From the NCBI GenBank assembly GCA_009995045.1, contig JAACQG010000010.1, forward strand, positions 28,025-92,024: 64,000 bases of DNA, in the 5' to 3' direction. The notes beneath the pieces were generated by a model. The model did not search any database, was not told where the DNA came from, and saw only the letters and a program-made list of their open reading frames with translations. The DNA is from Alphaproteobacteria bacterium. Its GTDB lineage: Bacteria; Pseudomonadota; Alphaproteobacteria; Micavibrionales; Micavibrionaceae. Within the stretch, counting starts at the first letter, position 1. Each line of letters starts with the position of its first letter. The position numbers were made by a program, and so were the translations under genes. Shown in pieces: positions 4,217 through 23,173 of the stretch.

Positions 4217-7200
4217 ATGCTGCATTTCATAAAGAACCCTCTGAGTAATAAAATAAATAAATCAAAGACTTGCCATGATAAACCTCATGCGTCAGATCCC
4301 CTAAACCACCCCTCTTCCCATCGTAAAACCGAACGTGGAAACGTCTTCTTCACCCTCTTCGGCGCGGTAGCCGTCGTCGGCATTCTCGGCGCAGGTATCA
4401 TGCAAACCATGCAAGGCCCGCTCAATACAATGGTGCAGGTCAATTTACGCGAACGCGCTAAAAGCGAAATGTCCATTCAATCAAAACTCGCCCTGCTTGA
4501 AGCAACCAATCAGGCAAATAGCGGCGACTGTGATTCTGATGGTTTTGTAGAACCCTTAGGGCATTCTGGAGCGATCGCTGGCTTAACAGGTGGCGGCTCG
4601 TTACCGACAGGCACAAAAACGGACCCTTGGGGCAATGAATATGGCTATTGTGCATGGGATGCGGGAGATACATCAGGCACATGTGGCGGCGCTTATTCCA
4701 CTTTGCTAGACGGTGACGCACCAACAGAAGCTAACAACTATTCAGTAATCGCAATCATATCCGCAGGGCCGGACGGTATTTTCCAAACAACATGTCAAGA
4801 TCATCCAACTCTTGAAACACGTGGCGGCGACGATCTTGTCGAAAACTACACATACGAAACAGCCGTTGCAGGATCAGGCGGCCTATGGAATATTAAATCA
4901 GGAACGCCAACATCCGCCGAAATCAACAAGGATGTGGATTTAAGAACCGAAAGCGATGTCTTCGGCTCGACCAGAAGCCCGCAGCTCATCCTCGGCGCAT
5001 CCTCAATCGTCCTCCCAACAGATACAACAGCTGGCATGACATGTAACAGCGCCAACCAAAACATCTTACGCGTGAATACAGCAACCGACCCCGACAGCTT
5101 GGAATTATGCCTATTAGTAGCACCTAGCACATACGGATGGAGATCTGTCGCCGCGGGTGCAACGGCATCCGCGCTTGCCGATGACGACACAACCGTAACC
5201 ACCGACGATTCCGCACCATCAATCGTATTTGCCGTAAACGGAACCGATGAACTCACAATAACCCCATCAAAACTTGAAGCAGGCTCACTAGACATTGAAA
5301 CAACAGGGACTCTAAATGCAGGCGCGGCAACATTCGGCGGCAATACAGCCGTCACCGGAACATTCGATGTCAACGGCGCAACAACATTAGACGCTCTCAC
5401 CGCATCCGGAAACACCACAATCAACGGCGCTTTTGAGGCAACAAGCGGCGCCACAATCAGCGGCGGCAGCGATCCTTCTCTCTCCGTCACGGGCAATATC
5501 GGCGCGGTCGATGTTGACCTGTCCGGCGACCTCAACCTCGGCAGCACAGAATCCGTGAACTGGGGCGATGCTTCCGTAAACATCACAGGCGACGCAACAG
5601 CAGACTCCCTCGTCTTCGCCGCAAACACTGCCAATTTCGACGCCGCAACAACAACCTTCGACGGCGCGGTATCAATCGCAAACACCGTAACCCCAACCGC
5701 CGATCCCGCACTAGATGTAACAGGAAACGTAGACGTCAGCGGTGATTTAGATGTCGACGGCTCCCTCAATCTCGGCGGCGATCAACTCTCCCTCGGCACA
5801 TTAACGGAAAACAATGCAGGCCGAATTTTAATCGGTCAATACAACGGTACAGACGCAACCACTGCATATTTCAGCTCTGAAACCGTTGGCGGCGATGCGT
5901 CACTTGGTAAAGACGGCGTGCTAACAATTATCAACGGCGCAATCGACGAGCCAAAAATGGACATCAGCAACGGCCCAACTGGCGGTGATTGTTTGAAATA
6001 TTTAAGCGGCGTCTTAACATGGCAAGCCTGTTCTGGCGGCGGCGGCGGTGATGGCGTTGGAACAGATGGCCTGCCCGACGTTCTGGCAAACGATAACAGC
6101 GCAAATAGCCTCAAAATCACAGACCTCGCAGACCCAACAGCCAACCAAGACGCCGCCACCAAAAAATACGTTGACGACTCTCTCGGCTCACTCGCCTCTG
6201 ACCGCATCCAAGATTTGGACAACAACACCTTCATCGAAGTCGACACAACCGATGATGGTTTAACGGACTCTATTGTTTTCACCACCAATGGCACGACGCG
6301 TTTGACCTTTGATAAGGTGGGCAATGCAGATTATAATGGGGGAGCAGGAGCATTCTATTTCTCCCGTAATTCAGGCGCGAATACTGCCCCGATTGTTATT
6401 CAAAACGCCTTCGGCGGTGGCGCTGGTATTACTTTTGGAAATGGGGGTAATGTCTGGGCACAGGTGCTAGGTTTACCAACGGATGACCTAGTCTTCAATA
6501 CTGATGTGACCGAACGCGCACGCTTTACTGCCGCTGGGGATCTACTGATTGGCACGAACACTGCGGCCGGATCAGCCATTTTACAAATGGACTCCACAAG
6601 TAAAGGTATTCTTATTCCACGCATGACTCTAGCCGAACGTAATGCTATCGGAACTCCCGCAAACGGTCTTGTCGTCTTCGCAACCGATGCCGGCGATGCC
6701 GGCCTCCTCCAATTCTACGACGGCACGCAATGGGTTGATGTCGGCGGCGGCGGCGCGAATACGGGCGGCCTCTGGACTGATCTCGGCGGCGACCGCATCC
6801 ATTACGGCGACGCAGGCACCGAACAAGTCGGCATCGGCACAGATAACCCCGTCACAACCCTCGACGTCAATGGCGGCATCCGTGTCGGCTCCGTCAGCGG
6901 CGCAGACGCCCCAACATACCTCTCCCTCGCTAGCCTCAGCGACACCGACGTATCAAGCGCGTCCGATGGACAATATCTGACCTACAACACGGGAAGCGGC
7001 AATTGGGAAGCTCAAAGCCTTACAGGCGCCGCAGTACCCGATGGCTCTCTCGACTGGGATAAATTCGTCGATGCCATGACCCTAGACACCACCACCACCA
7101 TCGACATGGACACAAATTCCGCCAACCTCAATTTCGACAGCGACACATTCGTAATCGACAGCGCGGATGATAGAATTGGAATTGGAACAAGCTCCCCTGC

Positions 7201-10200
7201 ACATGAGCTTCATGTCATAGGTAATATAGCAATCCCGAGAGGAAATACATATGGTGTAAACCATTTAGGAACCTACACAGATTTAATCAGCCTCGATTCA
7301 GCAAATAATCGAGTTTATGGCTCTTTAGGTTCAAACACTAGGAGTCGCATGCTAATATTAAACAATGGGCAAATGAACTTGCAAACAAATGCTCAAGATA
7401 TAATATTTAGTAGTAAAGCATTAAACACAGAAAGTGCTCGCATAACGGGCAACGGTAATATACTTGTTGGCACTACAACAGAAGACACATCCGCTTTATT
7501 AAACTTAAATAGTACAACATCCGGCTTCCTCACCCCCCGCATGAACAATACGCAACGCGATGCTATTGCATCACCTGCAACCTCATTGTTGATTTTCTCG
7601 GTCACCGATAACGAATATCAATACAACGCCGGAACACCCGCAAGTCCGAATTGGGTGCCGATGAGCGGCTCTGCCTGTGCCGATCCGACCCCCGATGCGT
7701 TTGATTTTTCAAACCTCGCAAACCAAACAATATCAAGCGTTGTCGCATCCAACATTGTTCAAATCACGGGCGTAAGCTGCGCGGTAACCGTCTCCTCCTC
7801 CGGCGATGCTTCCACCCAATTACAAAGCTGTAGCGACGCAACATGTTCAACCGTTATCCAAGGATGGTCATCAAGCGTACAAATCAATAATGGCGAATAT
7901 GTTCAAGCCCGCCTCACAACATCGTCAACCCCCGGCGCGACAAGCACAACAACCATCACAATCGGTAGCGCATCTGACTCATGGTCGGTATCAACATCCG
8001 GCGGTGATTGTAGCGTCGCCAACCCGATACCTGGAACCGTCTGTGCCGACGGCACCGTTTATGCGGGCAAAACGGTCGACGGAAACGTTAAAATGTATGT
8101 CACACGCTGTGACGAAGGAATGTCATGGAACGGCTCTGTATGCACAGGAACACGCGTATACCCCAAGTGGGCCACCAATGGCAATACTTCGGATGACAGC
8201 GGCGGCGGCGGTACAGTATCCGGTTTCACCAACACTTATACACTGAATGCGCTGGTTAACACCAACTCCCCCTTCCCAATGGCTGATCGATGCGCAACAC
8301 TCACCGCAAACGGCCATTCGGATTGGTACCTACCAGCAACACAGGAATATGTTACAATACTTGGCAATAAAGACGCGATCGGTTATTTCAACAATACTGC
8401 AACATATTTTGCATCCAACCAATCTAATGTCGTTTCTGCACTCGCTATAAGAGCGAGTGATCAGACATCTATTGCCGGAGCAAAAATTAATACGTCAGAG
8501 GTGCGCTGCGCCCGTAAAGACGGCGCCTTGCCCCCCGCTGGAACACCGGGCGGTACGGATGGACATGTCCAATATAACGAAGGCGGCAATTTAAACGGCA
8601 ATGCAAACTTCGTTTGGGATTACACCAACAATAACCTCGGCATCGGCACAGATACTCCTGCCGCTGCACTAGACGTTACGGGCAACACAGGAGAGGCGAC
8701 TATTATCGCCCGCGCTACTGACATTTCCGTGCCCTTCTTCCAGGCTTATGGAGATCTTGATGGCAATCCGAATGCCCCATTTATGAATATATCAGTAGTG
8801 AATAGTACGTCAGATCGTATTGTAGTTGATTTTGAACAAGAACGTGCCTGGCTGCAATCTCCAGAATTTCGCTTTAACTATTTAGGTAGTGATAGTAATA
8901 GCGGATCACAATTCCTTTTCACCGGAAATGCAGCAGGAAGCCGATTAATTGCAAGTGATAGAGCGCAGTCTATGGTTCAGGTTTCGGGTGGTTTCGAGCA
9001 AACCGGCACCGCCGCAATGGATGCTTTCATAATCAATCCAAGCATTTACACTACCGGAGATGGTACAACAGGTTCAGGAAATAATTTGCTGCGCGTTGCT
9101 AATACGGGTGTTGACCAGTTTGTTATCGATACTGACGGCAAGGTCGGCATTGGCACAAATGCACCGGACGCATCAGCAAGTTTAGATATTGCATCCACCA
9201 GCAGAGGCTTCCTCACCCCCCGCATGACCACAACCGAACGCGACGCCATCGCTACCCCCGCAACAGGCCTCATGGTCTATAACACCACATCAAACACATT
9301 CGATTATTATGACGGCGCCGCATGGGCATCCTTCGCATCCAGCGCAGGCACAGCAAACGCCCTCTCCGATACGGGCGACGGCAATACGTCAATCGACGTT
9401 GACACAGATAACGCCGACACCAACAACACAACGGTCTTCACCAATGCCGGTACACAAAGCATGATTATTGATGCCACAGGGGATGTCGGGATCGGCACAA
9501 TGGCAGACCCTTCAGAGGTACTCCACGTCGCAAGAACAGGACAAGACCCGACGATAAGAATTCAAAACGATGGAAGCGCCAATTCCACCGCCATCGCAAT
9601 TACAGATACTATAGCTAACAGAAATTCAACAATTCGATGGACTACTGGTGGCAACAGTGAAAGAGCAAAGATAAGTGCGTACATGGGCTCGTCTGGGGCA
9701 TCACCCAATATGTCCCTTTCAACTGGGTTTAATACTCAAAAAACATCTTTGGCCCTTAAATCCCCAGTAATTGACACTCAAAATATAGCGGCAGCGTCCA
9801 TAAGCTATACAACCGATTTACCAACATCTGGCAATGACACAGGCTTGTTAATCAGTAAAACAGATACAGCCTCTAATGGGATATCACTTCTCATCAACGC
9901 TCAGACAGACAGCACAACGCAATTCAGTGTTGATGATTCAGGCATTGGGTATTTCGCTGGTAATGTCGGCATCGGCAACGCTTCTCCCGATGTTGCCCTC
10001 GACGTCACCGGCGACATCGAATACACGGGAACCCTCACCGACGTATCCGACCGCCGCTTAAAAGACAACATCACCCCGCTCAACAAACACGGCGCGTTGA
10101 TTGACCGCATCAACCAAATCGAAACCGTCAGCTTTGTTATGAAAGACGACGCTAAAAAACGCACAGAATTCGGTGTAATCGCCCAACAATTAGAAACCAT

Positions 10201-10528
10201 CTTCCCCGAACTTGTTCATACCGCAAAAGATGAAATGGGCACAAAATCAGTCAACTACGTCGGCCTCATCGCCCCGATGATCGAGGCGACAAAAGAGCTA
10301 AAAGCTGAAAACGATGCGTTAAAGGCCGAAATCGCCACGATGAAATCCGGCCAAGACGAGATCATGGCCAGCCTCGCGTCCATGCAAGATGATATGAACG
10401 GCCTCAAACTCCATACTGGCTTTGGCATTGAAAAAGCCAATCTTCAAACCCTCGCTATCATGCTTTTAATGATGATCTTGGGTGGCTCCTGCGTTATGAT
10501 TGCAACCCGCATCAGACGTCATTCATAA
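4217..10528 (+). CDS. giant (2103 aa) chimeric surface fibre: pilin/pseudopilin-like N-terminus, tail-fibre-type repeats, DUF1566-like module, peptidase-S74 intramolecular chaperone domain, C-terminal TM anchor
   Basis: Uninterrupted 6.3-kb ORF with AAGGGG about 11 nt upstream of the ATG. N-terminus: basic leader plus hydrophobic helix ERGNVFFTLFGAVAVVGILGAGIM (4337-4402) and DPWGNEYGY...SAGPDGIFQT (4622-4790), which is GspG/pseudopilin-like. Middle: Thr/Gly/Ala-rich repeats (about 5280-5780); PTANQDAATKKYVDD (about 6130-6180); 6 copies of (V/I/L)GIG(T/N)..P...L(D/H)V.G; 3 copies of G(I/F)L.PRM...(E/Q)R.AI..P; DUF1566-like module at 8042-8518. C-terminus: SDRRLKDNI...FGVIAQQLETIFPELV...VNYVGLIAPMIEATKEL (10046-10290), then a coiled coil and a TM helix (10448-10510). 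Confidence 0.9.
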   Translation: MLHFIKNPLSNKINKSKTCHDKPHASDPLNHPSSHRKTERGNVFFTLFGAVAVVGILGAGIMQTMQGPLNTMVQVNLRERAKSEMSIQSKLALLEATNQANSGDCDSDGFVEPLGHSGAIAGLTGGGSLPTGTKTDPWGNEYGYCAWDAGDTSGTCGGAYSTLLDGDAPTEANNYSVIAIISAGPDGIFQTTCQDHPTLETRGGDDLVENYTYETAVAGSGGLWNIKSGTPTSAEINKDVDLRTESDVFGSTRSPQLILGASSIVLPTDTTAGMTCNSANQNILRVNTATDPDSLELCLLVAPSTYGWRSVAAGATASALADDDTTVTTDDSAPSIVFAVNGTDELTITPSKLEAGSLDIETTGTLNAGAATFGGNTAVTGTFDVNGATTLDALTASGNTTINGAFEATSGATISGGSDPSLSVTGNIGAVDVDLSGDLNLGSTESVNWGDASVNITGDATADSLVFAANTANFDAATTTFDGAVSIANTVTPTADPALDVTGNVDVSGDLDVDGSLNLGGDQLSLGTLTENNAGRILIGQYNGTDATTAYFSSETVGGDASLGKDGVLTIINGAIDEPKMDISNGPTGGDCLKYLSGVLTWQACSGGGGGDGVGTDGLPDVLANDNSANSLKITDLADPTANQDAATKKYVDDSLGSLASDRIQDLDNNTFIEVDTTDDGLTDSIVFTTNGTTRLTFDKVGNADYNGGAGAFYFSRNSGANTAPIVIQNAFGGGAGITFGNGGNVWAQVLGLPTDDLVFNTDVTERARFTAAGDLLIGTNTAAGSAILQMDSTSKGILIPRMTLAERNAIGTPANGLVVFATDAGDAGLLQFYDGTQWVDVGGGGANTGGLWTDLGGDRIHYGDAGTEQVGIGTDNPVTTLDVNGGIRVGSVSGADAPTYLSLASLSDTDVSSASDGQYLTYNTGSGNWEAQSLTGAAVPDGSLDWDKFVDAMTLDTTTTIDMDTNSANLNFDSDTFVIDSADDRIGIGTSSPAHELHVIGNIAIPRGNTYGVNHLGTYTDLISLDSANNRVYGSLGSNTRSRMLILNNGQMNLQTNAQDIIFSSKALNTESARITGNGNILVGTTTEDTSALLNLNSTTSGFLTPRMNNTQRDAIASPATSLLIFSVTDNEYQYNAGTPASPNWVPMSGSACADPTPDAFDFSNLANQTISSVVASNIVQITGVSCAVTVSSSGDASTQLQSCSDATCSTVIQGWSSSVQINNGEYVQARLTTSSTPGATSTTTITIGSASDSWSVSTSGGDCSVANPIPGTVCADGTVYAGKTVDGNVKMYVTRCDEGMSWNGSVCTGTRVYPKWATNGNTSDDSGGGGTVSGFTNTYTLNALVNTNSPFPMADRCATLTANGHSDWYLPATQEYVTILGNKDAIGYFNNTATYFASNQSNVVSALAIRASDQTSIAGAKINTSEVRCARKDGALPPAGTPGGTDGHVQYNEGGNLNGNANFVWDYTNNNLGIGTDTPAAALDVTGNTGEATIIARATDISVPFFQAYGDLDGNPNAPFMNISVVNSTSDRIVVDFEQERAWLQSPEFRFNYLGSDSNSGSQFLFTGNAAGSRLIASDRAQSMVQVSGGFEQTGTAAMDAFIINPSIYTTGDGTTGSGNNLLRVANTGVDQFVIDTDGKVGIGTNAPDASASLDIASTSRGFLTPRMTTTERDAIATPATGLMVYNTTSNTFDYYDGAAWASFASSAGTANALSDTGDGNTSIDVDTDNADTNNTTVFTNAGTQSMIIDATGDVGIGTMADPSEVLHVARTGQDPTIRIQNDGSANSTAIAITDTIANRNSTIRWTTGGNSERAKISAYMGSSGASPNMSLSTGFNTQKTSLALKSPVIDTQNIAAASISYTTDLPTSGNDTGLLISKTDTASNGISLLINAQTDSTTQFSVDDSGIGYFAGNVGIGNASPDVALDVTGDIEYTGTLTDVSDRRLKDNITPLNKHGALIDRINQIETVSFVMKDDAKKRTEFGVIAQQLETIFPELVHTAKDEMGTKSVNYVGLIAPMIEATKELKAENDALKAEIATMKSGQDEIMASLASMQDDMNGLKLHTGFGIEKANLQTLAIMLLMMILGGSCVMIATRIRRHS

Positions 10529-10550
10529 AGAAAGGAGCAAAGCCACCGCC

Positions 10551-13500
10551 ATGAAATTCGCTCTTCGAATTCTAACCGCTTTTGTTTTGATCTGCGCCGC
10601 GCTGCACACGAATGCCGCCAACGCCGCATGCTCAAACCCCACCGGCGTCGAAGGGCAAATCGTCTTCAACGAAACCTCCAAAATCCCCCAATATTGCGAT
10701 AACACAAACTGGATCGCCATGGTCGGGGGAGATCCGACCCCCGCACCCGACTGCCCCGCTGGCATTACGTCATGCGGTGGACAAACCGACGAACGTGTCG
10801 TTTTTTTAACATCACCAATCAACAACCCCAGTACAACAAATACATACAATAAATGCGCATCAGAGGCTGCCGCAGCTGGTTTAAAGGGAACTTATTACGC
10901 TTGGTATGCAAGCACAGATGAAGATGACCCTGAATCAGTATACGAAAAATCCCGCGTCCCGTATGTTAAAGTGGATGGTGTAAAAGTAGCCGATGACTGG
11001 GCTGACTTAACTGATGGAACAATAGACAGCAGTATTGATACATTTGCATCCGGCGACAGCGGTGGTTCTACAAACGGCGTTTGGACATTTGTTCTGCCTG
11101 ATGGAACTTATGCTGGCGATTCCACCTGCACCACAAACCTCTCATCCGGATTAAGAAACACCACAAGCTCCGGCTGGACAACCGGAACAGGATCAGGATC
11201 ATGTTCAAATGGAAAACGCCTTTATTGCTTCGAACAAGGGCAACCAACAACAAAAATCGTGCCCAACGGCCTCCTCGGCCACTGGCGCCTCGACGAAACC
11301 AGCGGCACCACCGTCTACGACAGCAGCGGAAATGGATATGGCGGTACAATGATTGGCGGCCCCACAAGTATACCAAACACCGTTATTGGAAATGGTCGAA
11401 ATTTTGGTAACGGTGATCGAATTGACATCACGCATGGAGGCGCCCTTGATAACCTGAACCAATTTACGATCTCGGCTTGGGTTTTTAGAGAAAATAATGG
11501 CGCCGGAGCACAAGGCCGTATTATGGCGATGCCGGGCAATTTTATGTTGTCATTATGGAATAATAGCATCCGTTTTACGGCCAGTCGCTGGAGTGGCAAT
11601 GAAGGAGGTTGGCGCAACGGAGCTGATCTTCCCAGTGGTCAATGGCATCATTATGTTGTGACATACGATTATAGTTCGACAACAAATATTCCAAATGTAT
11701 ATTTTAATGGAGAGCCTTATAATTTATCCAGAACTTCTGCGCCAACCGGCTCACCGACAAATGTTTCCAGCACTCTTAATCTGGGCAATGACCCATCAGG
11801 GCTATGGTTGAGAAATACTCTTGACGACGTGCGCATTTATAACCGCATTATCTCCCCCGACGAAGTCGCCGCAATCTACGCCGCGCGCGATGGCATCCGC
11901 TACAACGAAAATTACCGCGCCCCCGAATATTTCGACGGCAACCAATTCGTAACCATGCCCGCCCCCTTCCCCGAACCTGGCGACGCCCCAGTTTATGGCT
12001 GCAAAACAATCGGCGAAACATGCTCAGACGGAACAATCCATGCTGGCTTATCTCCTGATGATAATCAGCCAATATTTGCAACGCCAACAGATGCCCCCGG
12101 GGGAGCTGCTTATTCATGGAATGCAGGCAATGCAAGCGGAGCCAGTATGGTCGCCGTTACCGCAGATGCATGTTACAGCTCCGGCCAAACAGGATGTAAA
12201 ACAGGGGAACTCAACACAAATGACGCGGCAACAGCAGATTCAGATTCTATAACTGCCGGCATCCAAGACCATGAAGCCGCCAAATATTGCGACGGCCTCA
12301 GCAGCAACGGCTACGATGATTGGTATCTTCCCGCCCAAGAAGAGCTAGCACTTCTTTACACCAATAGAAGCGTCGGAGATTTATCAGGAACTTTTGCAAC
12401 ATCATATCCCGAACACACATATTGGACGTCATCGGAAGTCAATGACACAGCTGTACAAATATACAGTTTTGATGGAAGCGGTGGCAATAATGCCACCAAA
12501 GAAAACACATGGTCTGTGCGTTGTATACGTAAAGGAAGCTACGAATTAGCAGGAACCGCAGGCCTCGTCGGTCATTGGAAGTTCGACGAAAAATCTGGAA
12601 ATACAATTAAAGATTATGGATCTTCTGGCAAAGATTTAGCGTGGACAGACAATAACAATAATGATTTGAGCGAAGAATCAAACCGCGGCGCAATAGCTGG
12701 AAGTCTAAATTCTATTAATGGTATCGCCAAAATAAATACTATTGGTGACCAAGATTTTTATTTAAGCCCCACGGATAGCATGACCATATCCTTATGGTTC
12801 AAAACAGACGCACCAACAACCGCACTTTTTAACAGTTCTGCTGGTAGCATGGTTTCAACAATTATACTCGATGGCGGGCGCTTGCGCCCGCGTGTAAGAG
12901 ACAGTAATAATGTATTCCTCATTGATACTTATATAGCCAGCAACCTTAATGATGAAAGCTGGCATTTTGCATCTGTCGTTGTAAATAGACTTAACAATAG
13001 AATAAAAACATACATTGATGGTATTGAATTGGATGATCGCGACGTTTCATCCGCAACAGGAAATATCGGCATCCCCTCTAATACTGGAATAAGCATTGCA
13101 CAAACTGCTAGAAATACGAATATTGATGACGTTCGTTTTTATAACCGCGCCCTATCCGCCGCCGAAATCACCCAGATCTTCCAAATGGGCACCCCCGTCG
13201 GCTCCGTAACAGCCCTCCCTGAGGGCTGCCCCAATATCGGCGATGTCTGCGACGACGGCACCGTTTATGCAGGGCTCTCACCTGATGGAGACGTAGAAAT
13301 GTTTACGACACCAAATGATGGCCCTACCGTACCATGGAACAACGGGAATTCAAGCGGCAGAACCCTTGTCGGCACAGACGATACTGCTGGCTACGCTAAC
13401 ACTCAAATTATAATCTCAACAGATGCAGATTCAAGCATCGCCGGTTTCCAACCCCACCAAGCCGCACAATATTGTTGGGATTTACAAGCGCATGGTTATG

Positions 13501-13841: not shown

Positions 13842-16800
13842 TGCACGTTAAAACCGTCATAACGAACACGACCAAGGCAATCCATACAAAAACAATTGCC
13901 GCCGCATCATTATGCCTGCTTGCCATGACCGCATTATCCCCGAACACGGCCTACGCCGCATGTTCGAACAACATGGATGGAGAGGCGGGCGTTGCCGGCG
14001 AAATTGAATTCTTCACCCCCGATAACGTCCTACGCTATTGCGACGATACAAATTGGGTCGACATGGTCTATAAAGGCCCAATCCCTCCCGATTCCAGCTC
14101 CATCGTAAATTTCTTCTCTGATTTTTTTGCCCCCCCCGCCCCGACAACCGAATACACCGCCAACGCGGTAAATTTCGATGGTACAAATGACTATCTACGA
14201 CGCGGATCAGATATGACAGGAGCCGCCGATTCTAAATTACTTACATTCAGCTTTTGGTTAAGACTTGCCGATACCGCGTCAGGCGCCAAAATCATCTACA
14301 ATAATACCGGCAGCGCCATTCTATTATACGCAAACGGCAGCTCTATAAGCTTCGGTTTAAAAAATAGCGCAGGCACAACCATCACAAACGCACGCATCAC
14401 AAACACAGCCGTCGCTAATGAGTGGTATCACGTACTTGTAAGTGTTGATATGGCAGACACCGCCAGCTCGTCTATGTATCTCAATGACGAAGTATCCGGC
14501 ACCTTCTTTTCGCCAAATCCTTTTATTGATGAGAATATTGCTATATCTAAAGCTGAACATTCGATTGGCTCTGCGGCCAATACCACACAAAAATTCAATG
14601 GTGATCTCGCCGATATATGGATTGATTATGACACTTTCATCGACTTTTCCGTCGAAGCCAACCGCCGTAAATTCATCAGTGCCTCTGGCTATCCCGTAAA
14701 CCTCAATGCCGATGGCTCCCTCCCCACTGGCGCCCCACCTGACATCTTCCTCTCTGGCGACACTGCAACATGGCACACAAATAAAGGAACAGGAGGTGGT
14801 TTTACCGAAGGCGGCGCGCTGACCGATGGACCATCCGTCACCCCAAACGGCCTCGTCGCCCATTATAAACTCGACGAAACCAGTGGCACAACAGCCATTG
14901 ACTTCACCGCAAACGGCTACAATTCAACCATGTCCGGCGGAATGACTGCAGCTGCAAGCACCACAAATGGTGTCTTTAATAATAGTTTTAATTTTAACGG
15001 CGTAAGCAATAAATTATTAGTGCCAAACACTCTGGGCACTTCGTTATTTGGAAGTCCAATTTCATTTTCAGCATGGATATATAATGAGGGCGAAAACTCA
15101 GATTCTGATGCCTTTAATTCACAGCATATAATTAGTTTTATACACGATATTCGTGCTGTTTTGTACATTAGAGAGAGTGATCACCCAACAAATCCAAATA
15201 GTTTATTGTTTCTTTTAGATGATAGTGGCGGTGAAAAAATATTAGCAAGCGCAAGTAACGTTGTAAAACAAAACTCATGGATGCATGTCGCTGGGGTTAA
15301 TGATGGGGTTAATTCTAAAATTTATTTAAATGGAATACAAATAGGGTCTCTTCCAGCAGGTACTCCAGATACTCCGTTGGGTTCGAATAGAGGCATTGCA
15401 ATAGGCGGTTCAACTGATGGCACTTCAGAATTTAATGGTTCAATAGACGATGTCCGTATTTACAACCGCGCCATCTCCGACGACGAAATCACCGCTCTTT
15501 ACGACCTCGGCAAAGAGCGCGCCTCCCTCATCGGCCATTTCAAGCTCGACGAAACCAGCGGCACCACAGGTATCGACAGTTCAATTTTGGCAAATAACGG
15601 AACCTATATTAACGGCGTAACCCCCGCCACTGACACAAAAGACGGTGTCTATGACAACGCCATCAATTTCTACTCAGACGTTAGCGTTTCAAACAAAGAA
15701 TTAAAAGCCCCCTCAAATGACACTTATACAAACACATCGGAGCTAACATACGCCGCATGGATCAAACCCAGAGATTTTGGCGGGCATAGAGGCATAATAG
15801 AATTGGTCGATAACGCACACATGAAAACATATTTTAGCACAGATGATCTATCCTTCGGGGTAGAGGCATGGGACGATGGTTTCCATGAGTTCCGTGCAGC
15901 GACCTCGATCCCACCCAATGAATGGACACATGTTGCGGTCACATACAGCTACAATGACACGCCCACCACCGCCCCTAAGTTTTACATCAACGGAAACTTA
16001 TTCACTGGCTACATAAATGTACCTAACATTTCAACATCAACATATACCCTCCCCGCAACCTCCGCGGCTGTCGTTGGGCGGGTTGAATGGAATGGCAGCG
16101 GTAAAAACTTTAACGGCCTTGTCGATGATGCCCGCATCTATAACCGCGTCCTCACCGCCGCCGAAATCCAAGAGCTATATAATGACGCCAACCTCTCCCT
16201 CGTCGCGCATTACAAACTCGATGAAACCAGCGGCACAACAGCAATAGATAGCAGTGTCACAGGAAATAATGCAACAGCAACAGGTTCAAACATCACACTT
16301 AACCAATCTGGCATTATAGAAAAATCAGCCGTTTTTGGAGCAAACAGTGCCTATATTGTTCCACATAACGCAGTATATGAAGACCTTGATCAATTAACGC
16401 TATCTGCATGGGTAAAAGACCCTGCAACCGGAACCTTGTCCTTTATCGACAAAAACAATGATTTTTCATTTCAATTAAACTCAGCCAATAACAGGCTTCA
16501 ATTTGCAGGAGCACGCTGGAGCACGACATCAGGCATATGGCGCACACCGAATAATACACTTCCGTTAGAAACTGATAGCTGGTATCACGTTGCGGTTACA
16601 TATGATACATCAAATCTAACCAATGACCCATTATTCTATGTGAATGGGGATTTGGTATCCACAACTGAGCAAATAACACCCGCAGGAGTAAAAAAAGCAC
16701 CAGGATCGCTAAATTTATTTCTCGGGAATCAAAACAACTTGGCAAACCCACTGGGTGGTAATCTTGATGACGTTCGCATTTATAACCGCATCTTAAGCGC

Positions 16801-18841
16801 CGATGAAATAAAAGCTCTAACCAAAACCGGAACTGGCGGCTTGATTGCACATTACAAACTTGATGAAACATCAGGAACCACCGCCGCCGACAGCTCGATT
16901 TACAATAACGATGCCGCGATGAACGGCGGCTTGGATGCAAATAACAACCGCGTCGACGGCCCAATGAATACCGCCTTAGAATTTGACGGTGTTAACGACA
17001 AAATCAACTTAACAAATCCAAACCTAGTGTTAGGAACCGCCCCTAAATTCTCCGTTATGGCATGGATAAAACCCAACGAAATTAATAACTCGTATATCTT
17101 TAATTGGGGCAGCGGCAGCGGAAAATCTCCATCTATCCAATTCAATAGTAACGCGCTTAGATTCGGAATAACCGGCTCCAGAATAGATGCGGCAATGACA
17201 GATATGGGAATCGCAGAAAATAAATGGAGCCATGTCACAATCACGTATGACGGCACAACAGGAAGAATATATGGCAATGGTATATTAGTAGAATCCGATA
17301 CCTTAAACCTAACTGAAATCGATGACGGCACAATAGAAATTGGCGGCGGACCAAGTTATTTTAATGGAGCAATCGATGATGTAAAAATTTACGACCGCCT
17401 CCTCTCCGTGGATGAAGTCCTCGCCCTCTACAACGCCGGCGATCCACCGCCCGTTCCAAATGATAACCTCCTTGCCCATTGGGAATTCGAAGAAACATCG
17501 GGCACAACTGCCACAGACAGCACCGGCAACGGATATGACTTAACGCTTTCCTCCTCCCTAACCGCAAATTCAGTAACGGGAAGAATTGATAACGCCTTTG
17601 ATTTCTTTGCCGCTGGTAACGGTTCGAGCGGTCAAGCAAACATCCCCGCGTCTTTCACCGCCAACAAACAATTCACTGTTGCAATGTGGCTGCGCCTGAA
17701 AGACATAGATTCCAGACAACAAGGATTTTTCGGAAGCTCCAATTGGTTTAGGATCATGAATTATTTCGGCAATAGGGTCATCTTCAATACCCAAGCATGG
17801 GACACAAACGCAGTCGTATATGGTCCAACATTGGATCCCAATAAATGGACGCATATTGCGGTATCCTATGATTATGATGCCCCCTATACCCAAGATCCCA
17901 TTTTTTATGTAGACGGCGTCATGGCATCGACAAGCTGGCAGGGCGCGGCCCCTTCTGGCGCATATACAGACCCCGCCGACGAAACCTTATTCGTTGGAAG
18001 AAGAGTAGACTCATCAAGCGGTGGATTTAGCGGCGACATGGACGATGTGCGTTTCTATAACCGTATCCTTAGCCCCGCCGAAATCGAAATCCTCGCCGGT
18101 TGCACTGGCCCCGGCTCCTATTATTACAACTTCAGCAACAACAACATGCAATGGTGCAACGGCGTAAACGCTCCAAAAGATATGGGCCCAACCAATACAT
18201 CCGGCTCAACGTCTTCTTGCAACGTAAGTTATGACAGAGCAAATGTTGACTTCATATCAGATGGAGCTTCATTATATTACTGCAACACTCAAGATATGAT
18301 CCCCATTGGCAGAAAATGCACAAGTTGCGGAGGAAGCGCTACTGAAAAAGTCGCTTTTGTAACAATGTCAGCACAAAATGGTAATATGGGCGGCTTATCA
18401 GGGGCTGATGCCATTTGCCAAGCTGAAGCGGATGCCGTTGGCCTCACAGGAACCTACCTCGCTTGGCTTGCCGATAATACAGGATCACCAGATAGTAGGT
18501 TTTCTACTGCAATTAAAGGTACATTGCCAATAGTAAGAACAGATGGAACAACCATCGCAAATAATTGGGCCGATTTAACAGACGGCAGCATAGACGCACA
18601 AATGAACTATAGTGTTTATGGCGCGAAAAAAGAAACAAATGTATCCATAACGTGGACGAATGTAGCGAATGACGGGACATTATTTAATTCCTCAAATACG
18701 TGTGTAGATTGGACATCGAACAATAATGCAGACAACGGACAAACAGGGACAAGTACGGGCACAACTGATTGGACAGAACGTTCGTTCTCTCCCACTCGTG
18801 ACTGCCAAACTCGCTATCAAATTTACTGCTTCGAACAATAA
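13841..18841 (+). CDS. secreted modular protein (1666 aa): Cys-box, 6 LamG-type modules, degenerate Cys-boxes, C-terminal endostatin/DUF1554-like module
   Basis: The ATG overlaps the gene B stop (TAATG, 13839-13843). Signal peptide ends ...LLAMTALSPNTAYA. Five tandem modules each start (L)(V/I/L)(A/G)H(Y/F/W)(K/E)(L/F)(D/E)ETSGTT and end DDV(R/K)(I/F)Y(N/D)R.(L/I)S..E. One variant module has FDGTNDY...LADIWIDY. The C-terminus ends ...YQIYCFEQ. Confidence 0.9.
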   Translation: MHVKTVITNTTKAIHTKTIAAASLCLLAMTALSPNTAYAACSNNMDGEAGVAGEIEFFTPDNVLRYCDDTNWVDMVYKGPIPPDSSSIVNFFSDFFAPPAPTTEYTANAVNFDGTNDYLRRGSDMTGAADSKLLTFSFWLRLADTASGAKIIYNNTGSAILLYANGSSISFGLKNSAGTTITNARITNTAVANEWYHVLVSVDMADTASSSMYLNDEVSGTFFSPNPFIDENIAISKAEHSIGSAANTTQKFNGDLADIWIDYDTFIDFSVEANRRKFISASGYPVNLNADGSLPTGAPPDIFLSGDTATWHTNKGTGGGFTEGGALTDGPSVTPNGLVAHYKLDETSGTTAIDFTANGYNSTMSGGMTAAASTTNGVFNNSFNFNGVSNKLLVPNTLGTSLFGSPISFSAWIYNEGENSDSDAFNSQHIISFIHDIRAVLYIRESDHPTNPNSLLFLLDDSGGEKILASASNVVKQNSWMHVAGVNDGVNSKIYLNGIQIGSLPAGTPDTPLGSNRGIAIGGSTDGTSEFNGSIDDVRIYNRAISDDEITALYDLGKERASLIGHFKLDETSGTTGIDSSILANNGTYINGVTPATDTKDGVYDNAINFYSDVSVSNKELKAPSNDTYTNTSELTYAAWIKPRDFGGHRGIIELVDNAHMKTYFSTDDLSFGVEAWDDGFHEFRAATSIPPNEWTHVAVTYSYNDTPTTAPKFYINGNLFTGYINVPNISTSTYTLPATSAAVVGRVEWNGSGKNFNGLVDDARIYNRVLTAAEIQELYNDANLSLVAHYKLDETSGTTAIDSSVTGNNATATGSNITLNQSGIIEKSAVFGANSAYIVPHNAVYEDLDQLTLSAWVKDPATGTLSFIDKNNDFSFQLNSANNRLQFAGARWSTTSGIWRTPNNTLPLETDSWYHVAVTYDTSNLTNDPLFYVNGDLVSTTEQITPAGVKKAPGSLNLFLGNQNNLANPLGGNLDDVRIYNRILSADEIKALTKTGTGGLIAHYKLDETSGTTAADSSIYNNDAAMNGGLDANNNRVDGPMNTALEFDGVNDKINLTNPNLVLGTAPKFSVMAWIKPNEINNSYIFNWGSGSGKSPSIQFNSNALRFGITGSRIDAAMTDMGIAENKWSHVTITYDGTTGRIYGNGILVESDTLNLTEIDDGTIEIGGGPSYFNGAIDDVKIYDRLLSVDEVLALYNAGDPPPVPNDNLLAHWEFEETSGTTATDSTGNGYDLTLSSSLTANSVTGRIDNAFDFFAAGNGSSGQANIPASFTANKQFTVAMWLRLKDIDSRQQGFFGSSNWFRIMNYFGNRVIFNTQAWDTNAVVYGPTLDPNKWTHIAVSYDYDAPYTQDPIFYVDGVMASTSWQGAAPSGAYTDPADETLFVGRRVDSSSGGFSGDMDDVRFYNRILSPAEIEILAGCTGPGSYYYNFSNNNMQWCNGVNAPKDMGPTNTSGSTSSCNVSYDRANVDFISDGASLYYCNTQDMIPIGRKCTSCGGSATEKVAFVTMSAQNGNMGGLSGADAICQAEADAVGLTGTYLAWLADNTGSPDSRFSTAIKGTLPIVRTDGTTIANNWADLTDGSIDAQMNYSVYGAKKETNVSITWTNVANDGTLFNSSNTCVDWTSNNNADNGQTGTSTGTTDWTERSFSPTRDCQTRYQIYCFEQ
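14851..18100 (+). repeat. tandem array of five about 0.6-kb LamG-module coding repeats inside gene C
   Basis: Module starts lie near 14851, 15528, 16198, 16840 and 17467. DNA-level similarity is visible at module boundaries, e.g. cattataaactcgacgaaaccagtggcacaacagcc (14861) versus cattacaaactcgatgaaaccagcggcacaacagca (16208). Confidence 0.8.
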
Positions 18842-18853
18842 AAATGAAATGAT

Positions 18854-21800
18854 ATGAAACAAAAAACGCAAAGACAAAACCAGCCTACCCTCAAACAAAC
18901 AGCATTCTTATGCTGCGTCTTTGCTGCGTTTCTCATCGCGCCAATAATCACCCCCACCGCCGCATCTGCCCAAGACATCACATCCGGCCTCGTCGCACAT
19001 TGGGAATTCAACGACACTAGCGGAAGCACGGTTACGGATTCGAGCGGGAACGGAAATAACGGCACATGGTCCGATGGCGCAAACGATGATCTTGCTGAAG
19101 AATCCATTACATCATCAACAGGGAATGCACTTCGTCTGTCCGCCAATTCAAATGTAACCGCCCCCATTTTCCCCACTGGCGCATCCGCCCCATATTCTGT
19201 CGCCATCTGGATCAAATTTAATGGCCTTGGTGCATCCGATCAAAATAAAGTATGGGGCGCAGGACCTTACCCCGCCACATGCCAAGATGGCCCAAGCTTG
19301 TCTAAAAACTTTGAAAGTGGTAATTATTTTTTAAGATCAGACAACCAATGTGGTGGCAAAGTTCGCACGAATAGTTATCAAGTCGAGGACGTCTGGTATC
19401 ACGTCGTTACCACCTATGACGGGACAAATATATCACTCTATTTAAATGGGCAATTACAAAACTCAATCTCATCAAATTATAAAGGTACAGACCCACAAGC
19501 GGCTGATTTTATTCTAGGAAGCTATGACGGATCCTCAATTTTAGCCGACATTGATGATGTGCGAATATACAATCGCGCGATTTCGGTCGAAGACATACAA
19601 ACATTACGCTCACGCTTAGAAGCATGTGAAGGTGAAGCCGACGCCGGCAAAATGATCTACAACGAAGATTACCGCGCCATGCAATATTGCGACGGGTCGA
19701 TCTGGCAATCCATGGGCAAAGGCGCCTCCATCCTGCACGGTCAAAAAACCGAAGGCCAAGATTATGATATCAATGCAGTAAATTTTGATGGCACGAATGA
19801 TTACCTAGAAGTCACAGGTTTATCAAAACCACCACCCAGCCTAGTCACAGGTTCATTTTGGGTTCGCAGAGATACTGGAAACCTCGGCACTACACAAACA
19901 ATTTTGCGCTACAGAAATCCCGCTGGCGAATATCTGCGATTGAGATTTAATACATCCAACCAATTCTCAATTGATGGGCAAGAAGATGGTGTAGGAATCT
20001 TTAATATTCTTGCAAGAACAGTCAATCCTATATCGGACTCCAATTGGCATCATATTGCCTTTAGCATAGACACAACAAACAGATCTCTAGATCAAATTTA
20101 TGTTGATGGTGTATTAGATGTAACATCAAGCGGAAACACATATATAGCTATCGGTGGCGGTAGCGAAGCTTCAATCGGATCATTCGGAACAATTGAAAAA
20201 CTATACGGTTACCTAGCCGATATATGGGTTGATTTCGGAACAAAAATTGACTTTTCCATTGCTGCAAATCAGCGACTTTTCACAGATATCGACGGCAAAG
20301 CGGTTAACTTGGGAACAGATGGCTCCCTGCCCACCGGCTCGCCCCCCGATATCTTCCTCTCTGGCGATACCGCCGATTGGCACACCAACAAAGGAACCGG
20401 CGGCGGCTTCACTGAGAGCGGAGAGCTTACGACCGCCACAACCCTCCCCCCAGCGCAAAGCGCCAAAAAAATGCTCGGCTGGTGGCGCCTCGACGAAACC
20501 TCAGGAACAACATTTAAAGACAGCTCCGGCAACGGCAATGATGCAACATCATCAAACATCACCATGCCCGCCGCATCATCCATCGCCCCCGTAGGAAATG
20601 GCATTGATTTATCTGAAAACGGACAATCGAGAATAGAAACAAGCGCCGTAAGCACATTCACGCAAGGAAACGCATTCACCTACGCCGCATGGATGAAGCC
20701 AACCATCATTGATGGGGTTATGGGCATCATACGCATTGAAGGTGTTTTAGACCTCCAAACAAAATTCAATTCTAATGAAATACAACTATCACCAAAATTA
20801 TGGGATACGAATGGAGCATTTACCTCAACCACGCGCTTTAACGTGGGCGAATGGACACATGTCGCGATAACTTTCGATTACGATAACCCCATCAATACCC
20901 AACCCAAAATGTACCTCAACGGCGTCGCTGTCCCTGTTATTACGAATACAAATTCTTCTGGCCCTTTCCTTGGCATGCCCACAACAAGCAAGGTATTTAT
21001 AGGATTCAGAGGCACAAGTAACGGCAATTTCCACGGCATTATTGATGATGCCCGTTTCTATAACTACGAACTCTCCCCCGACGAAATCGCTGAAATTTAT
21101 GCCGCGAGTAATACCTTTGGCGGCCCCTACGGAACATATATTGACTCCGCTGCAAATAATTACCTTTCAGGACCAATCAGCACCGCCAGCGATAGCAAAC
21201 AATTAACATTAAGTTTTTGGTATCAACAAGACGCAAGCGATGGCGGCCCGATGACAATTTTGCAAACCGATAATGGTACAGAAGGAGGAATTGACATCAG
21301 CATCAATGGCGGAGGGTCACAAGCCCTTTCAATAGGCGCCTCTAACACGGCTCAAACTGATATACTAGGTTTAACTGGCTCCGGTGGCATCCTCAGAGAT
21401 GGAGAGTGGCATCACGTTCTTATAAGCGTCGACCTATCCGATCCCACCAAAAGGCATTTATACGTCGATGGTGTCGATGACTTAAGCAATGTTAATAATT
21501 ACGTTGATGACATCATGGATTTAACGCCGCAAAATTTGGATTACTATATCGGAAGAAATGAATCTGGAGGACGCGATATAAAAGGCTCCCTTTATAAGTT
21601 ATGGTTCGACACGGGAACCTATATTGATTTTTCTAATCCCACTAATCGCGCGCTTTTTGACATCGACGCCGATCTGGGAACCAATGGAGAAATCCCTACG
21701 GGTTCTGCGCCTGATATATTTCTCACAAATGACGCACCCACATGGAACGTCAACAGCGGTACCGGCGGCAATTTCACATTGACTGGAACACTTACAAATT

Positions 21801-23173
21801 CCCCGACCAAACTCCCAGGAAATGAAAAACAACCCCGCTACTGCGCCAACCCAAGCCAACCCGAAGGCACACTCATCTTCAACACCGATGACAACGTCAT
21901 GCAATATTGCGACGGCTATCAATACATCCCCCTCGGCCCACCGGGTGACGGCGGCGGCAGCTGTTCAAACCCCTCGGGCAGCGCAGGCTTCCTCTATTAC
22001 AACACCGATTTCCGCACCATCGAATACTGCGAAGGCGACGAATGGATCGGCGTCGGCCGCGATGGAACATCACTGGCATTAAGCAATGGTCTTTTGGGTC
22101 ATTGGACATTTGATGAATCCTCTGGAAACTTCGCTGATATTATAAATGGCAATGATGCCGTCCCCCAAGGCGATTATGCCTATGATCCAAATGGCGGAGT
22201 GATAGGAGGAGCAGTAGAGCTTGGCGGAACTAACTCATGCTTAGTTGCGGGATCAAACTCTATCAACTTACAAACAGCGGGGACATACAGCTTCTGGGTT
22301 AATTACAGAGACGACCAAGATTCCGATGGATTTATAACAAACGCAGCAATTTTCATAATCAATAGATCGGGCGGTAATACGCGCTTTCAAATGGATGATA
22401 GCGGAGGAGGATCGTTTCCGTATAATCTTGATATAACTGCACAACAAGTTGATTTAAACCAATGGACCCATATGATTCTCACATACGATAGCAACGGCGC
22501 TAAAGTTTACAAGAATGGCGCTCTAATAACGACATCGGGAGCACCAGCATTAACACCAGACTATGCCCAGCCTTCAAATTTCTATTTTGGATGCGACCGT
22601 AATATTCCTAACAGACATCTAGAAGGGAAAATAGACGACGTCCGCATCTACAACCGCGCCCTCTCCGCCGCAGAAGCTCAAGCGCTTTACAACCGCGCCA
22701 ATATCGACCCATGTAGCAAAAACAGCGTCACACCTGGTACAACATGTAATGATGGCACAATATATGCTGGCTCAAGAAATTATGGGTCAGGAAACGAAAA
22801 ATTATTTGTCCCTGCCGAATTCAGACAAAGCGGTGGCATACGATGGAAAGTATCAGTCTTGGCCGACGCCATACATATTAGCACCGAGTCGTCAGATGAC
22901 GGAAAAATTAATACCGCGAATTTAAACGCTTCAATTGATAATTTTCCCGCCTTTAATCTTTGCGATAGCCTAGATCGACACGGCTACAAAGATTGGTACT
23001 TACCAGCGAGAAACGAATTACAAATGTTAAAATCTAATTCTCTCGCTGATGCTGCCACATATTGGACATCCAATGAATCAAATGAGTTCAACGCAACAGC
23101 AAATTCAGGTGCTTTTTTCACCGTTGATAAAGATTCGAGTCTCCCCGATGTACGCTGTGTGCGTCGCAATTAA
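18854..23173 (+). CDS. secreted modular protein (1439 aa): 5 LamG-type modules, 3 Cys-boxes, C-terminal DUF1566-like module
   Basis: Starts 12 nt after the gene C stop. Signal peptide ends ...FLIAPIITPTAASA. LamG modules lie at about 18988-19608, 19770-20432, 20471-21106, 21130-21795 and 22090-22700. Cys-boxes lie at 19625-19720, 21842-21940 and 21962-22057. The DUF1566-like module at 22712-23170 shows DWYLPARNELQML, YWTSNE and VRCVRRN. Confidence 0.9.
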   Translation: MKQKTQRQNQPTLKQTAFLCCVFAAFLIAPIITPTAASAQDITSGLVAHWEFNDTSGSTVTDSSGNGNNGTWSDGANDDLAEESITSSTGNALRLSANSNVTAPIFPTGASAPYSVAIWIKFNGLGASDQNKVWGAGPYPATCQDGPSLSKNFESGNYFLRSDNQCGGKVRTNSYQVEDVWYHVVTTYDGTNISLYLNGQLQNSISSNYKGTDPQAADFILGSYDGSSILADIDDVRIYNRAISVEDIQTLRSRLEACEGEADAGKMIYNEDYRAMQYCDGSIWQSMGKGASILHGQKTEGQDYDINAVNFDGTNDYLEVTGLSKPPPSLVTGSFWVRRDTGNLGTTQTILRYRNPAGEYLRLRFNTSNQFSIDGQEDGVGIFNILARTVNPISDSNWHHIAFSIDTTNRSLDQIYVDGVLDVTSSGNTYIAIGGGSEASIGSFGTIEKLYGYLADIWVDFGTKIDFSIAANQRLFTDIDGKAVNLGTDGSLPTGSPPDIFLSGDTADWHTNKGTGGGFTESGELTTATTLPPAQSAKKMLGWWRLDETSGTTFKDSSGNGNDATSSNITMPAASSIAPVGNGIDLSENGQSRIETSAVSTFTQGNAFTYAAWMKPTIIDGVMGIIRIEGVLDLQTKFNSNEIQLSPKLWDTNGAFTSTTRFNVGEWTHVAITFDYDNPINTQPKMYLNGVAVPVITNTNSSGPFLGMPTTSKVFIGFRGTSNGNFHGIIDDARFYNYELSPDEIAEIYAASNTFGGPYGTYIDSAANNYLSGPISTASDSKQLTLSFWYQQDASDGGPMTILQTDNGTEGGIDISINGGGSQALSIGASNTAQTDILGLTGSGGILRDGEWHHVLISVDLSDPTKRHLYVDGVDDLSNVNNYVDDIMDLTPQNLDYYIGRNESGGRDIKGSLYKLWFDTGTYIDFSNPTNRALFDIDADLGTNGEIPTGSAPDIFLTNDAPTWNVNSGTGGNFTLTGTLTNSPTKLPGNEKQPRYCANPSQPEGTLIFNTDDNVMQYCDGYQYIPLGPPGDGGGSCSNPSGSAGFLYYNTDFRTIEYCEGDEWIGVGRDGTSLALSNGLLGHWTFDESSGNFADIINGNDAVPQGDYAYDPNGGVIGGAVELGGTNSCLVAGSNSINLQTAGTYSFWVNYRDDQDSDGFITNAAIFIINRSGGNTRFQMDDSGGGSFPYNLDITAQQVDLNQWTHMILTYDSNGAKVYKNGALITTSGAPALTPDYAQPSNFYFGCDRNIPNRHLEGKIDDVRIYNRALSAAEAQALYNRANIDPCSKNSVTPGTTCNDGTIYAGSRNYGSGNEKLFVPAEFRQSGGIRWKVSVLADAIHISTESSDDGKINTANLNASIDNFPAFNLCDSLDRHGYKDWYLPARNELQMLKSNSLADAATYWTSNESNEFNATANSGAFFTVDKDSSLPDVRCVRRN

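Follow-up and report, generated by a model that had tools for sequence, protein, structure and literature searches.

What would four large consecutive genes, one akin to phage tail fibres and three assembled from lectin-like modules, do in the chromosome of an alphaproteobacterium? The genes, designated A to D, occupy positions 4217 to 23173 of the window, the whole 64,000-nucleotide (nt) stretch of DNA analysed here. Open reading frame (ORF) calls, Pfam, NCBIfam, Rfam, ARAGORN and PHROG were applied, together with hidden Markov models (HMMs) that were derived iteratively from modules of the window itself. The evidence favours, at somewhat better than an even chance, a chromosomal surface recognition or adhesion locus of a Micavibrio-like alphaproteobacterium, a predatory lineage. 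ORF calls give four plus-strand genes of 2103, 1096, 1666 and 1439 amino acids (aa), as an earlier reading made from the letters alone (the sequence-only reading) had stated. Lengths of 1100-2100 aa and domain E-values down to 1e-133 put these ORFs well outside anything that chance would produce. Pfam, NCBIfam and PHROG detect no enzyme, transporter, regulator or mobility domain in the block apart from a self-processing S74 domain, in agreement with the same reading. According to the window-derived HMMs, the block's modules (LamG, Lcl_C, DUF1554 and Cys-box) occur nowhere else in the 64 kb.

Gene A (4217..10528, +) encodes a 2103-aa fibre precursor. Its exact protein is present on 22 metagenome contigs, and its homologues, from metagenome-assembled genomes (MAGs) of Micavibrio and Alphaproteobacteria, are labelled 'tail fiber domain-containing protein'. 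The shaft is rich in Thr and Gly and carries repeated 'VGIGT' and 'TS(K/R)GxLxPRMT...YYDGxxW' knots. A Lcl_C/DUF1566-like module lies in the shaft at aa 1320-1435 (8174..8521, +), where it is recognized by our own HMM and scores 19.6 bits, below threshold, in Pfam. The distal region, aa 1455-2042 (8579..10342, +), matches long tail fibres in PHROG (phrog_1699, 'long tail fiber protein distal subunit', E=1.7e-19, plus phrog_1980). Within it, Peptidase_S74 (Pfam PF13884), an intramolecular chaperone and autoprotease, covers aa 1944-2001 (10046..10219, +) along the full profile (1-58) with 58.4 bits against a cut-off of 22 (E=8.5e-16). The domain begins with the Ser-Lys motif SDxxxK, as defined in PMC10769870, here S1944-D-R-R-L-K1949. 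A predicted coiled coil, suggested by weak coiled-coil-type Pfam matches, separates S74 from a transmembrane (TM) helix that hydropathy places at aa 2074-2099 (10436..10513, +), followed by RIRRHS. The same C-terminal helix is found in 54 of 58 S74-terminated homologues. By its domain and motif content, gene A belongs to the class of Peptidase_S74 fibres. The sequence-only reading had found the S74 unit, but it had missed the two most distinctive features of the protein, the C-terminal TM helix and a conserved N-terminal anchor domain.

The pairing of S74 with a TM helix has a counterpart outside bacteria. A PDB sequence search with the S74 domain gave a sole match, the ICA domain of the eukaryotic Myelin Regulatory Factor (MyRF; 7dc3), and none to chains of the mosaic adhesive trimer (MAT) fibres of Bdellovibrio bacteriovorus. 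MyRF and gene A are alike in that an S74-type auto-processing domain is followed by a TM helix. In MyRF, trimerisation-dependent cleavage frees the N-terminal part from its membrane tether and releases a transcription factor into the cytoplasm. In gene A, unlike MyRF, the released part would be a periplasmic or extracellular fibre that retains an N-terminal anchor of its own. Self-cleavage has been shown for phage S74 proteins and for Bdellovibrio Bd3182 (PMC10769870), and the gene A product may likewise cut itself once trimerised.

The opposite end of gene A holds the N-anchor module (aa 35-285; 4319..5071, +), delimited by homologue alignment, hydropathy and AlphaFold2 (AF2) modelling. A basic cytoplasmic tail is followed by a TM helix at aa 40-65 (GNVFFTLFGAVAVVGILGAG) and then by a conserved alpha/beta domain of ~200 aa, in which GNVFFTLFGAV..G..G...M.GP, DPWG..YGYC.W, SAGPD(G) and GDD are invariant. 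The module stands at the head of 74 of 91 homologues, whatever the passenger. Passengers include S74 fibres, ~1200-aa proteins ending in DUF1554, proteins with RCC1, LamG and C-lectin domains, and discoidin proteins, and the family accordingly has DUF1554-, RCC1/LamG- and discoidin-ended members besides those ending in S74. Among 1.84 billion cluster representatives, a profile search found 1160 members, with the module always N-terminal; in a scan of one genome per species, the family was found only in Micavibrio-type genomes. Pfam (scanned to E<=10), NCBIfam and a profile search of PDB sequences gave no match to it. The largest N-anchor protein among the cluster representatives has 6785 aa (P0100), and orthologous fibres of >3600 aa run past the fetched flank at many loci (L013-L015, L023, L026, L030, L032, L035, L042 and others); the family thus includes giant genes.

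The sequence-only reading had called the N-terminal end of gene A a pilin-like anchor. An alternative that we consider improbable develops this idea: the N-anchor would be a degenerate pseudopilin by which a machine resembling a type II secretion system (T2SS) or a type IV pilus (T4P) system extracts the fibre from the inner membrane and displays it through a secretin, as a trimer borne on a pilus tip or pseudopilus. The layout G-x3-FTL-x-G...P, with a long helix and then three strands after it, agrees with this proposal, as do DPWGxxYxY, SxGPDG and DD(I/L) in GspG order, and Micavibrio encodes a T2SS and type IV pili (PMC3189940). AF2 modelled the full anchor with a pLDDT of 71.6 and the trimmed soluble domain with a pLDDT of 83.8 and a pTM of 0.81. 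Both models contain a long helix (34 residues in the model of the domain) and then three strands, a predicted topology that would be compatible with a pilin fold. GspG and modular type IV pilins likewise combine a hydrophobic helix with a small alpha/beta domain. Homology to PulG and GspG was pursued with hhalign, which against a genuine GspG alignment gave 62% probability for a local match of 22 columns around GGxLP..DPWGxxYxY. However, the prepilin site G↓(F/M)xxxE, the motif for prepilin peptidase cleavage and methylation, is absent: the sequence reads ERG-NVF-FTLFG, with no Glu5 and with three extra residues between Gly and FTL. Gene A is not matched by Pfam N_methyl or T2SSG or by the NCBIfam prepilin models. 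Foldseek searches with the AF2 models, including the one with a pTM of 0.81, found nothing in the PDB (best E=1.8) or in BFVD, and the PDB profile search found no pilin either. A trimer with three anchors would also fit poorly into a filament built from one subunit per position. The resemblance to pilins, drawn from sequence motifs and models, is a lead and not a demonstration.

Genes B (10551..13841, +), C (13841..18841, +) and D (18854..23173, +), read with Pfam and our own HMMs and, for C, with NCBIfam, are composed of a few recurring modules. Our HMMs count 13 LamG, four Lcl_C-like (DUF1566) and two DUF1554-like modules in the block, exactly the numbers that the sequence-only reading had given. 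Its estimate of about eight Cys-boxes compares with seven in B-D plus two cysteine-less relatives inside A. Pfam scores are above threshold for LamG in B-D, for DUF1566 in B and for S74 in A. Laminin_G_3, of the ConA-like lectin/glucanase superfamily, reaches 126.4 bits in B, 441.3 in C and 307.8 in D (cut-off 27.6) over 2, 6 and 5 stretches, respectively, and Lcl_C reaches 65.7 bits in B (cut-off 34.9) in two copies. The Lcl_C modules of A (19.6 bits) and D (24.8 bits) are below the Pfam threshold and are homologous to the B copies by the window-derived HMM. Endostatin/DUF1554 is matched in C at the C-terminal end and, weakly, in B close to the N-terminal end (Endostatin, 34.3 bits against 29.4; DUF1554, 27.4 against 27.5). 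The Cys-box is covered by no Pfam family, and a PDB profile search for its identity was empty.

The three proteins arrange these modules differently. Gene B, whose product is identical to the NCBI entry 'MAG: DUF1566 domain-containing protein [Alphaproteobacteria bacterium]', encodes a predicted signal peptide (aa 1-25, ANA↓A), a Cys-box, a DUF1554-like module (84-229) and LamG (287-439), and then a Cys-box-like segment (440-474), Lcl_C (539-662), LamG (720-873), Lcl_C (930-1057) and a final Cys-box (1060-1096). In gene C, a predicted signal peptide (aa 1-39, AYA↓A) and a Cys-box (39-80) precede six LamG modules (116-271, 389-550, 617-776, 834-990, 1052-1193 and 1260-1415) and a C-terminal DUF1554/endostatin-like module (1505-1666). 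Gene D has a predicted signal peptide (aa 1-39, ASA↓Q), five LamG modules (97-248, 314-469, 590-745, 766-928 and 1126-1275), Cys-boxes at 256-291, 995-1031 and 1035-1071, and a C-terminal Lcl_C-like module (1341-1439). The signal peptides, all Sec-type N-termini, were judged by eye. These domain results are consistent with the exported, multivalent binding function suggested by the sequence-only reading.

B-D belong to the LamG_3, DUF1566 and DUF1554 domain families. NCBIfam matches to TafC, FimD, NTNH and Len proteins were rejected because the scores are far below the cut-offs and reflect similarity at the domain level only; by the same scores, B-D fall in no characterised protein family. For LenA/LenB (NF047482), the equivalog score is 35.3 bits against a cut-off of 300, and only the DUF1554/Endostatin domain is shared. 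Gene C resembles TafC (NF052521; PMC11821415), a haloarchaeal Tat-fimbria subunit, in its LamG-type jelly roll with 144.8 bits. The equivalog cut-off is 410, and TafC comes from another domain of life and uses another export route, so that the likeness is one of domains only. DNA repeats among the block's modules are 60-80% identical, and the modules appear, from these sequences, to be old and divergent. Recent recombination among them was rejected on the same figure. DUF1566 is a known target domain of diversity-generating retroelements (DGRs) (PMC5758913). A DGR target was rejected, since the window has no reverse transcriptase domain and no near-identical template/variable pair, and its module repeats are only 60-80% identical.

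The spacing of the genes suggests that they are expressed together. Base-by-base reading places the stop of A (TAA, 10526-10528) 22 nt before the ATG of B at 10551. The longest ORF of B begins with TTG at 10500, and the ATG at 10551 has AAGGAG 13 nt upstream. B and C share 1 nt in the TAATG at 13839-13843, the start of C overlapping the stop of B, and the stop of C (TAA, 18839-18841) lies 12 nt before the ATG of D at 18854. The gaps of 22, -1 and 12 nt and the tight operon-like packing described by the sequence-only reading are therefore accurate. Upstream of A, the 272-nt intergenic stretch 3945..4216 (+) is presumed to be the promoter region and may act as one; sigma-70-like matches in it (4076-4105) are weak and at chance level. 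Promoter and terminator counts across the block equal shuffle expectation, and the scan is thus silent on co-transcription, which the spacing nevertheless makes plausible. The flanks are housekeeping genes, as had been noted: ubiB (ABC1 kinase-like; 2568..3944, +; Pfam ABC1, 205 bits) on the left and tRNA-Arg(ccg) (23424-23499, -) on the right.

To which organism does such a locus belong? One genome per species was scanned with the N-terminal domain of A, giving 132 relatives, of which the best 80 were examined. Almost all of these 80 are MAGs named Micavibrio, Alphaproteobacteria, Rhodospirillales, Bdellovibrionales or Pseudobdellovibrionaceae. NCBI taxonomy files Micavibrio under Bdellovibrionales/Pseudobdellovibrionaceae, which explains the last two labels. 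The cultured relative among the best 80 is Micavibrio aeruginosavorus HCB189. Rfam identifies an alphaproteobacterial two-piece tmRNA (alpha_tmRNA) in the window, and this RNA, together with the related loci from Micavibrio-type MAGs, assigns the window to a Micavibrio-like lineage, in keeping with the alphaproteobacterial origin already read from the letters. Micavibrio in culture live by obligate epibiotic predation on Gram-negative bacteria (PMC3189940).

The window-derived HMMs were mapped on all fetched loci. In 54 of the 81 loci the N-anchor fibre gene is immediately preceded by ubiB, itself probably not a functional part of the system, and the fibre genes range from ~1000 to >3600 aa. 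Co-occurrence of fibre and lectin genes, which the sequence-only reading had envisaged, recurs in the relatives with a marked direction: a gene in the same orientation that carries Cys-box, LamG, Lcl or DUF1554 modules begins at or near the fibre stop in 14 of the 30 loci with at least 1.5 kb visible downstream, whereas a lectin-module gene occurs anywhere in the upstream 10 kb in 1 of 70. The four-gene layout itself is repeated in GCA_035911135.1 (L007), where a 2117-aa fibre gene is followed by LamG genes of 992, 998 and 1295 aa. The intergenic gaps are 27-34 nt, and identity to B-D is 29-35%. D is collinear with the last gene of this locus, L7_D (35% identity over ~1100 aa), and the Lcl_C-like module of A is 35% identical by BLAST to the Lcl module of L7_B. 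M. aeruginosavorus HCB189 (L073, NZ_CP195303.1, at about 1.226-1.247 Mb) has a 2988-aa fibre gene and then a Cys-box/Lcl gene. Elsewhere the fibre gene stands alone (L009) or a DUF1554 gene lies on the opposite strand (L008). In one further locus (L056, CAVPYZ010000001.1, 9917-20216), two ORFs of 1173 and 544 aa represent the fibre gene and five, of 154, 215, 277, 399 and 654 aa, the lectin genes, a fragmentation due either to gene decay or to indel errors of long-read assembly. Comparison of the loci indicates a conserved core, ubiB then fibre, with the lectin genes as a recurrent variable cassette. This corrects the sequence-only reading: the four genes are not a fixed system, the cassette being absent in about half of the relatives.

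This variability sustains a rival explanation that we rate as unlikely but take seriously. The genes may be neighbours without a common machine: A would be one of many paralogous fibres, and B-D would be independent secreted or periplasmic lectin-like proteins, for polymer binding or scavenging, envelope or matrix structure, or biofilm, collected in a permissive 'adhesin island' beside the fibre. The cassette varies in number and architecture and is missing downstream of the fibre in 16 of the 30 relatives, and its modules look old and divergent at the repeat identities given above. B-like LamG+Lcl_C proteins also stand alone in non-predatory Rhodobacterales. One of them, a LamG-Lcl_C-LamG-Lcl_C protein of Celeribacter indicus with 35% identity (L091; CP004393.1, 3315701-3339012), is encoded on an island resembling an integrative and conjugative element (ICE) with TraG/VirD4, resolvases, an integrase, McrBC, ArdC and Fic, from which it appears that this type of lectin protein is horizontally mobile. 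With lectin genes missing in about half of the loci and B-like genes alone elsewhere, fibre and lectins need not act together. The directional bias (14/30 downstream versus 1/70 upstream) argues against mere proximity, as do the spacing of the translational-coupling type in both the window and L007 and the Lcl_C and Cys-box-like knots common to fibre and lectin proteins.

An origin from phage is another possible explanation for a fibre gene. Gene A shares with phage tail fibres and spikes (K1F endosialidase, T5 pb1) the S74 domain and its catalytic motif. Unlike these proteins, it is cellular and chromosomal, has no virion genes nearby, carries anchors at both ends and contains internal lectin-like insertions. 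Descent of the block from the tail-fibre module of a prophage or tailocin, as a remnant, would agree with the PHROG tail-fibre and S74 matches and with the tRNA gene and tRNA-like fragment just downstream. However, the flanks hold no other phage gene, no integrase and no repeat boundary, the place beside ubiB is kept in dozens of species-level genomes, the GC content of the block matches its surroundings, and the membrane anchor at the N-terminus and the TM helix at the C-terminus are features of a cellular protein. We regard this remnant explanation as very improbable, and a prophage or genomic-island origin was rejected on synteny, GC content and the lack of phage and mobility genes.

A closer analogue is found among predators. 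The sequence-only reading knew of no characterised system with this composition, a claim that has to be revised: the A family is already labelled in MAGs, and the S74 subgroup of MAT fibres of B. bacteriovorus is the closest characterised analogue of gene A (Caulton et al. 2024, PMC10769870). MAT proteins form trimeric fibres, with or without S74, in which the N-domain is constant and the tips vary; they are exposed on the surface and bind glycans (PMC10769870, PMC12428579). Like the gene A family, they form a large multi-paralogue family resembling phage tail fibres, with a C-terminal S74 bearing SDxxxK, a constant N-terminal module, variable distal parts and a proposed role in recognition of prey glycans. 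The differences are equally clear. MAT proteins have ~1000 aa, a cleavable signal peptide and a ~130-aa beta-rich N-domain, whereas gene A has 2103 aa, a TM anchor that looks uncleaved and an alpha/beta N-anchor. Unlike MAT, gene A also continues beyond S74 into a C-terminal TM helix, is linked to multi-lectin genes and belongs to a different bacterial phylum. It lacks the N-terminal domain and signal peptide that define MAT, the distinction being made from the published description of the MAT N-domain. Judged by this comparison, gene A is functionally analogous to MAT and not a member of the MAT family. Within the literature covered by our search, Micavibrio was not linked to S74, tail-fibre, LamG or DUF1566 proteins.

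The lectin genes, in turn, recall adhesins directed at eukaryotic hosts. Legionella Lcl (Lcl_C/DUF1566) and Leptospira LenA/B (DUF1554/endostatin-like) are exported adhesins with similar small C-terminal binding domains. B-D have no collagen-like repeat and combine these domains with LamG arrays and Cys-boxes. If the organism were an associate of protists or animals, the DUF1566 and DUF1554 modules could bind host extracellular matrix or glycosaminoglycans, an explanation we find improbable. It draws on the Lcl_C and Endostatin/LenAB-type matches and on a gene like DotI/IcmL, an inner-membrane component of type IVB secretion systems (T4BSS), 2.5 kb upstream of the block. That gene (1017-1754, -) adjoins COQ9 and ubiB, and the arrangement is kept in relatives L001, L007 and L008. 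It is, however, solitary, the window containing no other T4BSS gene. The LenA/LenB equivalog score (35 against 300), the wide occurrence of Lcl_C/endostatin-type domain families in free-living bacteria, and the fact that the sole cultured members of the lineage prey on Gram-negative bacteria (PMC3189940) also speak against host targeting.

Taken with the predatory lineage, the domain and synteny results allow us to propose how a surface recognition locus of this kind might work. The precursor of A would be held in the inner membrane at both ends, by the N-anchor and by the TM helix after S74. Three C-terminal S74 domains, kept close by the membrane helices and the coiled coil, would trimerise and nucleate the folding, from C to N, of a trimeric shaft resembling a phage tail fibre with its DUF1566 lectin-like insert. 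Self-cleavage at Ser1944 (SDRRLK) would then remove the S74 domains, and the mature fibre would remain attached by the N-anchor and subsequently reach the surface. B-D, encoded in the same tightly packed gene string and predicted to be exported by Sec signal peptides, would supply 13 LamG, 3 DUF1566-like and 2 DUF1554-like modules, ~18 in all. Acting together, the fibre and B-D would bind multivalently to glycans or to other polymers on the target cell surface, the targets being most likely bacterial prey. Binding to prey glycans would fit early evidence, cited in PMC3189940, that carbohydrate receptors take part in the interaction of Micavibrio with its prey.

Several points weigh against this proposal, in addition to the absence of lectin genes from many loci and the free-standing B-like proteins described above. 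The predatory lifestyle of this particular organism is deduced from relatedness only. A protein held in the inner membrane by both ends is not obviously surface-exposed, and the h-region of the C signal peptide is short and falls below the hydropathy threshold, while the signal peptides of B-D are calls made by eye. LamG_3, DUF1566 and DUF1554 are binding folds without a predictable ligand. In Bdellovibrio, moreover, deletion of MAT genes caused no strong predation defect (PMC12428579).

A more elaborate proposal, to which we give little credence, is a composite prey-recognition organelle peculiar to the Micavibrio lineage. A trimeric phage-type fibre would be matured by a membrane-tethered S74 domain, as a bacterial counterpart of MyRF logic. 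A degenerate-pseudopilin N-anchor would allow a T2SS/T4P-like machine to extract the fibre and display it through the outer membrane. B-D would dock on the fibre by means of shared Cys-box/knot modules, yielding interchangeable, branched receptor-binding tips.

The remainder of the window is ordinary chromosomal content, with GapR and COQ9 among the neighbours. At 23237-23265, the sequence 'gtgagctcgggagggttcgaaccct' resembles the 3' half of a tRNA (T-arm plus acceptor) on the minus strand. It lies ~160 bp from tRNA-Arg(ccg), whose 3' end is similar, is called by neither ARAGORN nor Rfam, and may be a pseudo-tRNA or an old att-like remnant. ORFs lacking any Pfam match are found at 40232-42472 (-), 44006-45280 (+), 24709-25503 (+) and 27838-29004 (-), with sizes of 746, 424, 264, 165 and 221 aa, the 746-aa ORF being the largest orphan outside the block. 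At 52514-55879 (-), a 1121-aa sensor histidine kinase (MASE1-CHASE-PAS x3-HisKA-HATPase) adjoins an OmpR-type two-component pair at 55945-57934; the exact kinase, unlike the products of neighbouring genes, is absent from the sequence collection searched. Two tandem EamA-family transporter ORFs on the plus strand (48141-49034 and 48910-49950) overlap by ~125 nt. The second was called from a TTG, and its true start is probably further downstream.

These results bear on prey recognition and retention in Micavibrio and other epibiotic predators, a subject on which the 2011 Micavibrio genome paper offered only hemolysin-like proteins and pili as pointers to attachment. What is distinctive here is a large unannotated N-anchor family attached to S74 fibres or other tips. 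Also distinctive and unannotated are the tether formed by S74 plus a TM helix, the Cys-box and the linkage of fibre and lectin cassette; fibre adhesins that predators derive from phage receptor-binding hardware are of a known kind. The N-anchor family is recurrently linked to lectin cassettes at a conserved chromosomal site, and the homologous fibre-lectin pair in cultured M. aeruginosavorus HCB189 makes the idea directly testable. Should the modules bind defined bacterial glycans, they would be usable as typing or targeting reagents. The S74-plus-TM architecture is a bacterial parallel to eukaryotic MyRF. If the proposal is true, it extends from Bdellovibrio to an unrelated predatory lineage the principle that predators borrow phage receptor-binding hardware.

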